Assembly: GCA_037446815.1 (NCBI GenBank)
Contig: JBBIHX010000003.1
Location: forward strand, 291-64,290
Source: Caldilineae bacterium
GTDB lineage: Bacteria; Chloroflexota; Anaerolineae; DTLA01
Reading direction: 5' to 3'
Length of the DNA: 64,000 bases
This document shows positions 11,237 to 63,752 of the stretch, piece by piece. Under the pieces are notes generated by a model, which saw only the letters and a list, made by a program, of their open reading frames with translations, was not told the origin of the DNA and did not search any database. Every line of letters begins with the position of its first letter. The first letter of the stretch is position 1. Made by a program: the position numbers and the translations under genes.

Positions 11237-11327
11237 AGCAAGCAGCGGTCAGCAATCAGCGGTTGGCTATCGGAATGGCTGACGGCTGAGTGCTCGCAAA
11301 GACAGTAACCAAGGAGACTCGGCGAAG

Positions 11328-23030: not shown

Positions 23031-23177
23031 TCGGTTTCAAAGTCTGTTGGTATTTGTCATTGCGAGGGCGCGGAGCGCCTGAAGCAATCTCTGGGGCGTG
23101 AGGTTGCTTCGCTTCGCTCGCAACGACACACGAGGAGAGTGTGCCTACGGTTCACCAACACAAGATGGAACCGAATG
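23031..23177 (+). repeat. MITE-like dispersed repeat, family A (copy 1)
   Basis: Terminal inverted repeats GACTCGGTTTCA...TGGAACCGAATG. The internal hairpin is GTCATTGCGAGGGC...GCTCGCAACGACAC. Homologous to 52691-52840 and, in reverse orientation, 29384-29516. Confidence 0.7.
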
Positions 23178-32815: not shown

Positions 32816-33829
32816 GTGAGGATAGCGCGAATCCTCATCGGCGGTGCGGTGCTGGTGTGTTTGGTCTTCGTTGCACCTGCGCCAGCCCAAACTCAATATC
32901 CGCCGCCCCAGTACTTCCCGCAGACGGGCCACATCGTGCGGGACGAGTTTCTGGCCTATTTCCGCGCCTACGGCGGCGAGCGCATCTTCGGCTACCCTAT
33001 CACCGAGGACTTCTACGACCGGTATGACGCCGGTTGTCGCACGCAGTACTTCCAGAAGGCGCGGATGGACCTGGTGCCGAGCGTGTTCGGGCCGGCGCGC
33101 ATCCGCCTGGCGCCACTCAGCGAGTACCTCGGCAAGCGGGATCCGCCCATCTCCCCCTCGGACATCCCGCCGTCCAGCGATCCCAACCGACGGTACTATC
33201 CGCAGACGGGCCACACGCTCGGCTACGCGTTCAAGACGTTCTTTGACTTCAACGGCGGCCTGGAGGTGTTCGGCTATCCCATCACCGAACTCATGGTGGA
33301 AAACGGCGTCATCGTGCAGTATTTCCAGAAGGCCAAAATGGAGTGGCATCCCGAGAAGCCCAACGAAGAGCGGGTGCAACTGGCCAACCTGGGAGAACTG
33401 TACTTCCAGTACGCGCGGTTGAATCCTGCGCTGCTAAGCCGTGTCCCGCCTCCCGCGGCGACCAGCGCAGGGCCCACTACCCAGCCCACGGCCGCCGCGT
33501 GGTCGCCTTTGCGCCGCTCGGTTACCCAGATGACCGCGTACGTCTCCCTGCGCAGCGCCATCGTCAGCACCCGGGGGAATCAGACGGTCTCGGTATCGGT
33601 GGCCGACCAAGATGGACAACCTATCGCGGGCGCGACGGTGTTCTGCACCGTTCGCTATCCCAATGAGGATCGCGTACTCGCAATGCCCGTTACCGATACG
33701 GACGGACGCTCCTACCTTACCTTCCAACTGGCCAATCCCCCACCTGGCTACATCGTGTTCGTGGAGGTAACGGCAACCTACGGGCAAGCGAAGGCAGGAG
33801 GACGCGCTGCTTTCCTTACCTGGTGGTAG
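32816..33829 (+). CDS. Secreted hypothetical protein with an internally duplicated 'PQTGH...FGYPITE...YFQKA(R/K)M' module and a C-terminal Ig/CarbopepD_reg-like beta domain
   Basis: GTG start and an N-terminal signal peptide (ILIGGAVLVCLVFVAPAPAQ). Two roughly 90-aa repeats are followed by VSVSVADQDGQPIAGATVFCTVRY... Confidence 0.65.
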   Translation: MRIARILIGGAVLVCLVFVAPAPAQTQYPPPQYFPQTGHIVRDEFLAYFRAYGGERIFGYPITEDFYDRYDAGCRTQYFQKARMDLVPSVFGPARIRLAPLSEYLGKRDPPISPSDIPPSSDPNRRYYPQTGHTLGYAFKTFFDFNGGLEVFGYPITELMVENGVIVQYFQKAKMEWHPEKPNEERVQLANLGELYFQYARLNPALLSRVPPPAATSAGPTTQPTAAAWSPLRRSVTQMTAYVSLRSAIVSTRGNQTVSVSVADQDGQPIAGATVFCTVRYPNEDRVLAMPVTDTDGRSYLTFQLANPPPGYIVFVEVTATYGQAKAGGRAAFLTWW

Positions 33830-34183: not shown

Positions 34184-35641
<1,458 letters not shown>

Positions 35642-35724
35642 TCAGGGCCGTTAGCCTTTGGCCGATAGCCTTTAGCCGCTGGCCAAAGGCTGACCGCTGA
35701 TCGCTGACGGCTGTTTGCGCGTTG

Positions 35725-35990
35725 TAACAAAAAATGCCCCGCCCTACAAGGACGAGGCGCGGGACCCCGTGGTACCACCTTGCTGACCCGATATGCGGGC
35801 CGCTCTGTCGGTCGCTGGACCGTTCCGCGATAACGGGCGGACCCCGATGCGGCTTATCGGGCTGGCCTTTTCGCCGCTGGCTCCCGGGCGGGTTCGGCGG
35901 TGCTGCGGCGCCGGCTTGCACCCTCCCGGCTCGCTGGGGCCTTTGCGGGCCGCCTACTGCTCCCGTTCATCGCCTTGGTGTATCGTGCTA
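35725..35990 (-). promoter_or_regulatory. Candidate T-box riboswitch leader of proS
   Basis: On the minus strand the T-box-like AGCAAGGTGGTACCACGGGG (plus 35763-35784) can be compared with the consensus AAnnnGGGTGGnACCGCGGG. An F-box CCGTTA is upstream (plus 35831-35836) with AGTA upstream of that. A downstream GC hairpin plus TTTTTT (plus 35729-35734) would be the intrinsic terminator, and the ATG follows 110 nt later. Confidence 0.5.
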
Positions 35991-36045
35991 TTGGCGGTAG
36001 GATAGCATAGAACGGACGGGCTGTCAAACGGATTGCGCGGATGTT

Positions 36046-36087
36046 GGTCGCCCCCGATGTAGGGGCGACCGATCGGTCGCCCCTACG
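36046..36087. repeat. Triple-arm palindrome GGTCGCCCC-cgatgta-GGGGCGACC-gatc-GGTCGCCCC, containing a perfect 28-nt palindrome (36059-36086)
   Basis: GTAGGGGCGACCGATCGGTCGCCCCTAC is a perfect inverted repeat with an extra upstream arm copy. It lies between the divergent proS leader and the + strand cluster promoter. Confidence 0.7.
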
Positions 36088-36166
36088 AATTTGCCCGCGG
36101 GCGCTTCGCCGTTCGGAATGACAGGCGCCAAAGGACCCCGAAACTGAATCCCATGCGTGCAAGAGG

Positions 36167-36195
36167 TTGACGGAAAATGAGACTAGGGTTATAAT
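36167..36195 (+). promoter_or_regulatory. Sigma70-type promoter (TTGACG-17 nt-TATAAT) of the signalling supercluster
   Basis: TTGACG at 36167-36172 and TATAAT at 36190-36195, 67 nt upstream of ATG 36262. Confidence 0.6.
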
Positions 36196-36261
36196 CAGCA
36201 TATAATTTTGGAGGCATCTGCTGTTCCGCCATTTGTGCACACGCAGACAAGGTGAGAGAAG

Positions 36262-37074
36262 ATGGCCCTTAAGGGAAACCTGAAGGATTTCGGCGTTGCC
36301 CAACTGCTGAACCTGATTCACATCGCCCGCAAGACAGGTGCCCTCTCTGTCCGCAGCAATGGATTGTCGGCCACGCTGTATTTCCGCGAGGGGAAGTTGC
36401 TCGGCGCGTACCAGGATAGCCGCGACGACAGCCTTCTGGCCCTGCTCCAGCGCGCCGGCAAGATCACGCCCCAACAGGCGGAGAGCATCTTGTCCCGCGC
36501 CGAGACGCGCACCGACAAGGAGGTCGGCCTCCTTCTCCTCCACAACAACTACGTAACGCAGAAGGACATCCTCCAGGTGGTGCGGGCGGCGGCGCTGGAG
36601 ACCGTGTACGCCATCTTCGCCCTCACCGATGGCACCTTCCAGTTTGATCCCAATCGGATGCTCCCCCAAGAGAAAATCGGCGTTCCCATTGACCTGGACA
36701 ACGTCATCATGGAAGGGACGCGGCGGATGAAGGAATGGGAGCAGTTGCAGGCCGAGTTGCCCGACCTGGACGTGGCCCTGAAGTTCACCGACAGGCCTGG
36801 GACTTCCCTGAAGAACATCAGCCTGAGCGTGGAAGAGTGGCGGGTCATCTCCTTCATCAGCCCGCGCAACACCATTCGCCAAATCGCCCAGTATATCGGC
36901 CTGAGCGAGTTCCAGATTCGCAAAATCGTGTACGGTCTCCTGACGGCGGGCTTGGTGGAACTGGTGCGGCCCGAGGGCGCGCTGCCCCCTGGCCTACCGG
37001 GTCTTCCGCCGTCGCCAGCGGTCAAGCGGGGGGTGATCTTGCGCTTGATTGACAAAATTCGCCGCATCAGCTGA
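36262..37074 (+). CDS. DUF4388-domain protein (MglA-associated regulatory partner type)
   Basis: The N-terminal MALKGNLKDFGVAQLLNLIHIARKTGALSV...YFREGKLLGAY is the DUF4388 signature by eye. The Pro/Gly-rich C-terminal tail begins 18 nt upstream of the GTPase gene. Confidence 0.7.
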   Translation: MALKGNLKDFGVAQLLNLIHIARKTGALSVRSNGLSATLYFREGKLLGAYQDSRDDSLLALLQRAGKITPQQAESILSRAETRTDKEVGLLLLHNNYVTQKDILQVVRAAALETVYAIFALTDGTFQFDPNRMLPQEKIGVPIDLDNVIMEGTRRMKEWEQLQAELPDLDVALKFTDRPGTSLKNISLSVEEWRVISFISPRNTIRQIAQYIGLSEFQIRKIVYGLLTAGLVELVRPEGALPPGLPGLPPSPAVKRGVILRLIDKIRRIS

Positions 37075-63675: not shown

Positions 63676-63752
63676 TGGAGCCACCCATCGGAATTGAACC
63701 GATAACCGGGCGCTTACGAAGCGCCTGCTCTGCCGATTGAGCTAGGGTGGCC
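63676..63752 (-). tRNA. tRNA-Thr (anticodon CGT), CCA encoded
   Basis: The minus strand reads GGCCACCCTAGCTCAATCGGCAGAGCAGGCGCTTCGTAAGCGCCCGGTTATCGGTTCAATTCCGATGGGTGGCTCCA. It folds as a cloverleaf (acceptor GGCCACC/GGTGGCT, anticodon stem GGCGC/GCGCC with loop TTCGTAA, T-arm GGTTCAATTCC). Confidence 0.85.

Follow-up and report, generated by a model that had tools for sequence, protein, structure and literature searches.

The closest described counterparts of the RNA element treated here are the T-box riboswitches (Rfam family RF00230) in the leaders of aminoacyl-tRNA synthetase genes of Firmicutes, such as tyrS and glyQS of Bacillus subtilis, and in some Firmicutes T-boxes are also known in front of proS, the gene for proline--tRNA ligase. 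In the ileS leaders of Actinobacteria, where the T-box acts on translation, parts of the Stem II region are missing and the Shine-Dalgarno sequence lies in the sequestrator helix. Proline-specific T-boxes control the proline biosynthesis genes proBA and proI of B. subtilis, whose verified leaders use the specifier codon CCU (Brill et al. 2011, as cited in PMC13198045); Stem I of the proI leader has been modelled (PMC3664808). According to TBDB (10.1101/2020.06.17.157016), U is the preferred last base of the specifier in Pro T-boxes. Chloroflexi are an established T-box phylum (10.1101/2020.06.17.157016; PMC5622331), and T-boxes of this phylum and of Deinococcus-Thermus are catalogued in TBDB and in comparative work that preceded it. 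A literature search found no published proS T-box in Chloroflexi, the main surveys (Vitreschak 2008; Gutierrez-Preciado 2009) being outside its reach. Here we describe the proS leader in a stretch of 64,000 nucleotides (nt) from a Caldilineae bacterium (contig JBBIHX010000003.1), a member of one of the phyla covered by TBDB; the whole stretch is called the window below.

The leader shows the same full architecture as the synthetase T-boxes of Firmicutes, with the elements in the same order. It differs from them in its content of guanine and cytosine (GC) of 71%, in its host, an uncultured lineage of Chloroflexota, and in the distance of about 117 nt between terminator and start codon, a spacer which contains an unrelated repeat hairpin. 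The Pro specifier and the logic of transcription antitermination are common to the window leader and to proBA and proI, whereas the codon is CCC instead of CCU and the downstream gene is the synthetase gene itself. With the actinobacterial ileS leaders it shares a high-GC host, tRNA sensing and the chemistry of the T-box bulge; in contrast to these leaders it possesses all stems, a U-tract terminator and a Shine-Dalgarno sequence far downstream. With high confidence we assign the element to the canonical transcriptional T-box riboswitches, as a full-length member with specificity for tRNA-Pro.

A full-length T-box in front of proS

The proS open reading frame (ORF) of the window (34184..35611, minus strand) encodes a proline--tRNA ligase of 475 amino acids, which belongs to the archaeal/eukaryote-like class (TIGR00408, 584.7 bits with a cut-off of 437) and contains the Pfam domains tRNA-synt_2b, HGTP_anticodon and ProRS-C_1. 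A sequence-only reading of the window had suggested a T-box upstream of this gene and proposed to search the leader with RF00230. This search resulted in a significant match over the full length of the model (Table 1), with E = 4.5e-14 in a local scan and E = 3.4e-12 for the whole window, using both strands and all 4227 families. The score is nevertheless under the RF00230 gathering score, which is 93 bits in the Rfam release used. At gathering thresholds an Rfam scan of the window reported only a tRNA, and the T-box emerged solely with E-value thresholds. The composition-bias term in the score of the window amounts to 21.6 bits; the GC content of the genome is 66%, and because the leader is still richer in GC, in contrast to the AU-rich consensus of Rfam, its score stays short of the gathering threshold. 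This threshold is an annotation cut-off tuned on AU-rich leaders of Firmicutes and not a biological criterion.

The single elements named in the sequence-only reading could all be located on the minus strand. The near-consensus T-box sequence AGCAAGGTGGTACCACGGGG is present at 35784..35765, the F-box as CCGTTA at 35836..35831 and the AGTA element at 35958..35955, and the GC-rich hairpin with a U-run, placed about 110 nt before the start codon, was found with the end of the T-run 117 nt before the proS ATG. Inspection of the specifier loop for a Pro codon (CCN) and a following purine, which had likewise been proposed, revealed CCC followed by G, so that the specified amino acid agrees with the downstream gene.

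The base of Stem I consists of a GC/GC helix, a kink-turn (K-turn) region (GAUGAA / GGA) and a CGGG/CCCG helix. The specifier loop (5' strand AGCAGUA, 3' strand GAACCCG) is flanked by the latter helix and by a GGCGG/CCGCC helix. Further up, the AG bulge AGCGA (35935..35931) and a GCCGG/CCGGC helix lead to the distal loop GAGGGUGCAAG. In the Rfam alignment the window motifs AGUA, AGCGA, GGUG and GAA are positioned on AGUA, AGAGA, GGUG and GAA of the model, and in the apex of Stem I GGGUGCAA is aligned to UGGUGAAA. The F-box and the T-box core are separated by 48 nt, Stem III included. Upstream of the leader a promoter was identified in a consensus scan for which 0.1 sites are expected at that score; the end of its -10 box is 24 nt away from the base of Stem I.

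Mutually exclusive antiterminator and terminator

The antiterminator is composed of helix A1 (GCAAGG/CCUUGU), a 7-nt bulge (UGGUACC) and helix A2 (ACGGGGU/GCCUCGU), and ACCA at the 3' end of the tRNA is the predicted pairing partner of the UGGU within the bulge (35777..35774). In the window and in all related leaders described below this bulged helix is the minimum free energy (MFE) structure of the isolated element. In the terminator stem, which precedes AUUUUUU, 7 of the 10 pairs are G-C. The 5' arm of this stem is at the same time the 3' arm of the antiterminator; since both structures need the common segment CCUCGUCCUU, they exclude each other. The terminator is the more stable hairpin in the window (-17.7 versus -14.7 kcal/mol) and likewise throughout the set of leaders (-17.7 to -19.8 versus -9.2 to -18.5 kcal/mol); calculated over the entire leader of the window, the canonical form with terminator has -67.4 and that with antiterminator -64.4.

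By analogy with the established behavior of the T-box family, the leader would bind tRNA, discriminate between the charged and the uncharged form and respond with read-through in the following way. Transcription would start from the conserved sigma-70-type promoter, some 20 nt before Stem I. In the default state, the 10-bp terminator with its U-tract (35758..35729) would fold and RNA polymerase would halt before proS. If charging with proline is poor, uncharged tRNA-Pro with the anticodon GGG would pair with the CCC specifier, the tRNA elbow would dock on the platform of AG bulge and distal loop, and the free 3' end (A73-C-C-A) would pair with UGGU of the antiterminator bulge. The antiterminator stabilised by the tRNA would then take the common segment from the terminator, and read-through would provide more prolyl-tRNA synthetase, while with charged tRNA the 3'-end contact would be impossible. 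The U of UGGU leads to the prediction of A73 as discriminator, and bacterial tRNA-Pro usually has A73. The earlier proposal of tRNA(Pro)-mediated antitermination of proS thus gains support from the gene identity, the RF00230 match, the Pro specifier, the exclusive hairpins and the 11 relatives described below, with tRNA binding itself expected from the family.

Table 1. Elements of the proS leader and their positions in the window
Feature	Position	Strand	Basis and details
RF00230 (T-box) match, model positions 1-219 (full length)	35745..35979	-	66.4 bits
Promoter: -35 TTGACA, 17-nt spacer, TG-extended -10 (TGcTATCCT)	35999..36027	-	consensus scan 10/12 plus TG extension
Stem I	35880..35973	-	Rfam alignment
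Specifier loop, 3' side GAA-CCC-G	35889..35895	-	Rfam alignment register; codon CCC 35892..35890, purine G 35889
Stem II, GCGGC/GCCGC, with GAAAA...GAUAA internal region	35849..35877	-	Rfam alignment and pair counts
Stem IIA (CGG/CCG) and F-box CCGUUA (35836..35831)	35824..35846	-	Rfam alignment
Candidate Stem IIB pseudoknot, UCCGC with GCGGA, five pairs	35841..35837 with 35828..35824	-	pair counts
Stem III: GGCCCG, loop CAUAU, CGGGUC	35785..35801	-	per-sequence folds; directly 5' of T-box sequence
T-box sequence and antiterminator	35746..35783	-	MFE fold without terminator 3' arm, -14.7 kcal/mol
Intrinsic terminator: GCCUCGUCCU, loop UGU, AGGGCGGGGC (35758..35736), A, UUUUUU (35734..35729)	35729..35758	-	fold and scan
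Shine-Dalgarno sequence of proS, GGGAGGAGAG	35617..35626	-	read from sequence; 5 nt before ATG (35611)

The T-box is confined to one clade of ProS

To the window we added 80 genome and 80 metagenome proS loci, then the contigs for 11 proteins from a large protein collection and finally one further contig, L173. The nearest ProS in the genome collection (L001, 95% identity) belongs to a metagenome-assembled genome (MAG) of Chloroflexota; the remaining top 80 genome proteins are 64-74% identical and originate mostly from MAGs of Anaerolineae or Chloroflexia. The proposed Chloroflexota- or Firmicutes-type character of the organism is therefore supported, the nearest relatives being Chloroflexota MAGs. 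Among the 160 genome and metagenome loci a T-box core upstream of proS was detected only in L001 and L081 (86% identity), and permissive Rfam scans confirmed both with 65.5 and 69.5 bits; the same scans revealed no T-box in the eleven next-nearest loci.

In the large protein collection the ProS identities fall into tiers of 95-96%, 84-87% and 76-78%. The contigs for the eleven proteins contributed eight more full-length T-box matches directly upstream of proS, with 57.1 to 86.8 bits. No T-box was found in the scans of L165 and L167, where purA ends about 115 nt before proS, and L171 was left out of the T-box counts, as only 55 nt of upstream sequence are available. A neighbour-joining tree of ProS unites all proteins with an upstream T-box in a single clade, whose sister group consists of P0016, P0017 and L082, which lack the element. 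The protein P0021 is placed inside the T-box clade, and a T-box was predicted for it before its leader was examined. Its contig L173 contains a full-length T-box as predicted (78.5 bits, E = 1.7e-17), with the specifier region GAA-CCC-A.

Altogether 11 related contigs, with ProS 76-96% identical, show a full-length RF00230 match (57-87 bits, E = 4.8e-10 to 1.1e-17). In all 160 other proS loci examined the T-box is absent, and a hidden Markov model of the leaders gave no further match, even at E <= 10, in the 877 kb of loci assembled before L173 was added.

Conservation and covariation of the leaders

The comparison comprises 12 leaders, those of the window, L001, L081, L161-L164, L168-L170, L172 and L173. 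The specifier CCC followed by G or A is found in 12/12, AAGGUGGUACCACG is invariant in the same number, and the UGGUACC bulge is present in all. The F-box reads CCGUUA in 11 of the 12 and CCGAUA in L173; the terminator stem occurs in every leader, with a U-rich tail of 4-6 U except in L173. At the sequence level, 11 leaders show no variation in the AG bulge or in the helix beneath the distal loop. All 11 leaders with upstream sequence have kept the promoter boxes, TTGAC(A/G), a 17-nt spacer and TG plus TATNNT, with varying sequence in the spacer. The Shine-Dalgarno sequence is GGAGGAG in most leaders and GAAGGAG in L169 and L170. The distance from F-box to T-box core varies (34, 48, 62, 89, 136 and 140-142 nt), and the spacer between terminator and ATG has a length of 31-144 nt and unrelated sequence. 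Since the lengths of the insertions and deletions (indels) in these orthologues are not divisible by three and the RNA modules are near-invariant, the conservation tracks RNA modules and not a reading frame.

Base pairs were counted in MAFFT alignments, among them one of 10 full sequences and one of 11 sequences for the 5' half. In the full alignment 97.8% of cells pair, compared with 34-44% when the partners are slid, and in the 5' half 96.8% compared with 30-46%. Over all counts, that of the 3' domain included, 97-98% of cells pair, with 30-49% for slid partners, and in the 3' domain the observed covariation score was attained by 0/500 shuffles. Stem III contributes compensatory changes: one pair is CG in 5, GC in 3 and UG in 1 sequence, and the adjoining pair is AU in 5 and GC in 4. 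Across 11 leaders helices A1 and A2 are paired to 98.5% and 100%, with one-sided changes from G-U to A-U or G-C. For Stem II the pairing is 90.9%, and its five core pairs are formed in 11/11 leaders with a one-sided G-C to G-U change only. The candidate Stem IIB pseudoknot, paired to 96.4% and without two-sided change, is consistent with the data but has no covariation support. Taken together, the helices of Stem II and Stem IIA/B are paired to 91-100%, and none of them shows a compensatory change. An apparent compensatory pair in the middle helix of Stem I (alignment columns 39-74) was dropped, because it hinges on the gap placement by MAFFT.

Weighing the assignment against alternatives

Several observations speak against a canonical transcriptional T-box. 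All 12 leaders (57.1-86.8 bits) are below the gathering score of RF00230, and even the best relative reaches only 86.8 bits. Unconstrained folding does not give the canonical Stem I (-29.4 versus -39.8 kcal/mol for the MFE fold; z = +1.1), and the MFE of the whole leader belongs to a different fold with -114.6 kcal/mol. In Stems I and II there is one two-sided change (C-G to U-A in L172) in 32 pairs, and 57/500 shuffles reach the observed covariation score, so that these stems are supported by conservation and model match, not by covariation. The terminator is likewise kept in 11 leaders without covariation, showing only U-G to U-A changes. The pair counts were obtained from closely related sequences with a structure derived from the window, which flatters the comparison with slid partners; they are supporting evidence and not independent proof. 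In L173 the terminator stem is intact with an interrupted U-tract, GUUGUUGUUGU (L173:218-245), and termination in this most diverged leader may be weaker or proceed by a different route. Finally, scans of the window and of 11 related loci revealed no tRNA-Pro gene; the sole tRNA gene of the window encodes tRNA-Thr (anticodon CGU, 63676-63751, minus strand).

Thermodynamic folding was dropped as a test of Stem I, because GC-rich RNA has decoy helices and K-turn, S-turn and T-loop are not modelled. A noncanonical MFE fold is expected for an RNA with 71% GC and non-canonical motifs and lends no support. The membership in the T-box family is carried by the E-values and by the feature-by-feature tests, and the only test with an adverse result is the Rfam cut-off.

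The best surviving alternative, although a very improbable one, is a T-box which acts on translation by sequestration of the Shine-Dalgarno sequence, as in the actinobacterial ileS leaders. In the leaders studied here the helix competing with the antiterminator is a GC-rich stem with an immediate U-run, kept in 11/12 leaders, and the Shine-Dalgarno sequence follows about 20-130 nt further downstream and never within this helix; in the window it is outside both the terminator and the antiterminator. Moreover, neither Stem II nor Stem IIA/B nor Stem III is missing. These findings argue for control of transcription, in spite of U-tracts that are short (4-6 U) and in L173 interrupted, and of the fact that translational T-boxes occur in high-GC lineages and are modelled separately by TBDB (10.1101/2020.06.17.157016).

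Slightly less probable still is a decayed or chance T-box-like sequence without regulatory role, to which a score of 66.4 bits against a gathering score of 93, the large composition-bias term and the failure of thermodynamic folding alone to find the canonical fold would correspond. It is opposed by the E-value for the whole window, by modules which are intact in 12 orthologous leaders while indels of as much as about 100 nt have reshaped the adjoining linker and spacer, by the compensatory changes in Stem III, by CCC in 12/12 leaders and by the prediction of the L173 leader from the tree. Equally improbable is a functional T-box which reads another tRNA, or several tRNAs, via an overlapping frame of GAACCCG (AAC for Asn, ACC for Thr): frame ambiguity of specifiers is noted by TBDB (10.1101/2020.06.17.157016), overlapping codons were proposed for some T-boxes (PMC5622331) and AAC and ACC are likewise invariant in 12/12 leaders, but in the Rfam alignment it is CCC that occupies the canonical register, directly 5' of the conserved purine preceding the helix, a shift to the +1 frame again yields Pro codons (CCG or CCA), and proS is the sole regulated gene.

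For the transcriptional tRNA-Pro T-box, what is seen in the window and its relatives are the sequence and structure elements, the mutual exclusivity of the two hairpins, the conservation and the agreement between codon and gene.

Genes, repeats and linker insertions around the leader

The proS gene is monocistronic: the neighbouring gene at 32816..33829 (plus strand) is convergent, and the upstream neighbour at 36262..37074 (plus strand), a DUF4388 gene, is divergent. The intergenic region of 650 nt between the divergent genes accommodates two divergent promoters and the proS leader. Within proS the Pro codons are 12 CCC, 10 CCG, 1 CCT and 0 CCA; CCC is thus the commonest, and the choice of a CCC specifier fits the GC-rich codon usage of a genome with 66% GC. 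The DUF4388 neighbour (PatA_N-type) has a weak MarR-like match at the C-terminus and is preceded by a promoter-like site near consensus, TTGACG-17-TATAAT (window 36167-36195, plus strand); the same family occurs next to proS in L162.

Two ORFs overlapping the leader, 35854..36882 (minus strand) and 35734..36000 (plus strand), were rejected as genes, because the indels between the orthologues are not multiples of three and the RNA modules are conserved. A further long ORF extends over the GC-rich leader at 35454..35921 (minus strand), and in the public record behind L164 a gene of 170 amino acids without Pfam match is called across the T-box (L164:219-731, minus strand). Such ORF calls overlapping T-box leaders are most likely spurious.

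Between terminator and Shine-Dalgarno sequence the window contains a hairpin of tandem heptamers (35646-35713, minus strand), which consists of (CAGCNNU)x4 and an inverted block and includes a perfect 10-nt inverted repeat, GCCUUUGGCC/GGCCAAAGGC. Elements of the same style and different sequence occupy the corresponding spacer of L001, L161, L162, L163, L168, L169 and L170, and others are found in an intergenic region of the window (11237-11290, plus strand) and directly behind proS in L130 (L130:2803-2932), an unrelated locus. A role of the heptamer hairpin as second regulatory element was rejected, because it occurs elsewhere (window, L130), is absent in L164 and L172 and is not conserved in sequence. 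It looks like a dispersed intergenic repeat and not like a part of the riboswitch, and it is reminiscent of the STRR repeats of cyanobacteria.

Another dispersed repeat, whose core is GTCATTSCGAGSG, was matched 11 times in the window compared with 3.7 expected, and 0/100 shuffles reach 11. Copies are located at 36110-36122 (minus strand) and at 23056, 23115, 23217, 29390, 29473, 45152, 52719 and 52778. One copy is situated just upstream of the proS promoter and adjoins a perfect 28-nt palindrome, GTAGGGGCGACCGATCGGTCGCCCCTAC (36059-36086), which gave a weak Rfam match as a terminator-like hairpin (BASRCI414, E = 0.16). In L001 a region of 85 nt about 170 nt upstream of the T-box (L001:2294-2380) matched several unrelated microRNA-precursor models on both strands and below the gathering thresholds; matches of this kind point to a long near-perfect hairpin or palindrome and not to a microRNA. 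Two loci from Chloroflexia MAGs without T-box contain cobalamin riboswitches (RF00174) about 2.3-2.8 kb upstream of proS, at L003:41-189 and L008:525-668 (both minus strand), with about 59 bits and above the gathering score.

The linker between F-box and Stem III is a hot spot for indels and has taken up a dispersed-repeat copy in some lineages. In L001 (~2715-2810) and L081 (~1245-1350) it holds related hairpin elements, about 90-105 nt long and with ends of the GTCATT...AATGAC type, and L163, L169 and L170 have a different, AT-richer insertion of about 95 nt. L162 has 41 and L168 14 additional nt; the window, L161 and L164 share the short 48-nt form. The pattern of the linker forms does not simply match the ProS tree, which suggests that the linker was inserted or deleted repeatedly. 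Tentatively, and with somewhat more doubt than conviction, we propose that the proS T-box existed once at the root of this small uncultured Chloroflexota clade, lacking in the sister clade and in the other Chloroflexota proS loci examined, and that it has since tolerated repeated indels of between 14 and about 100 nt in its linker, a copy of a dispersed hairpin repeat among them.

Discussion

T-boxes in Chloroflexi and Pro-specific T-boxes are already known, and the leader described here is very probably an ordinary new example, which leaves the understanding of how T-boxes work unchanged. It provides a confident regulatory annotation for proS of an uncultured Chloroflexota lineage and supports the assignment to this phylum. 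At the gathering score of RF00230 a whole clade of GC-rich, complete T-boxes with 57-87 bits escapes annotation; riboswitch censuses of high-GC MAGs which rely on this threshold therefore under-count T-boxes.

The presence of the T-box in one ProS clade and its absence in the sister clade could be used for studying the gain or loss of T-boxes, and the 12 leaders represent a small natural series of linker-length variants. If the evolutionary scenario proposed above is true and the copies with insertions still switch, the two tRNA-contacting halves of the riboswitch would be separable by linkers of 34 to 142 nt, and the clade would offer a traceable case of riboswitch gain outside Firmicutes.

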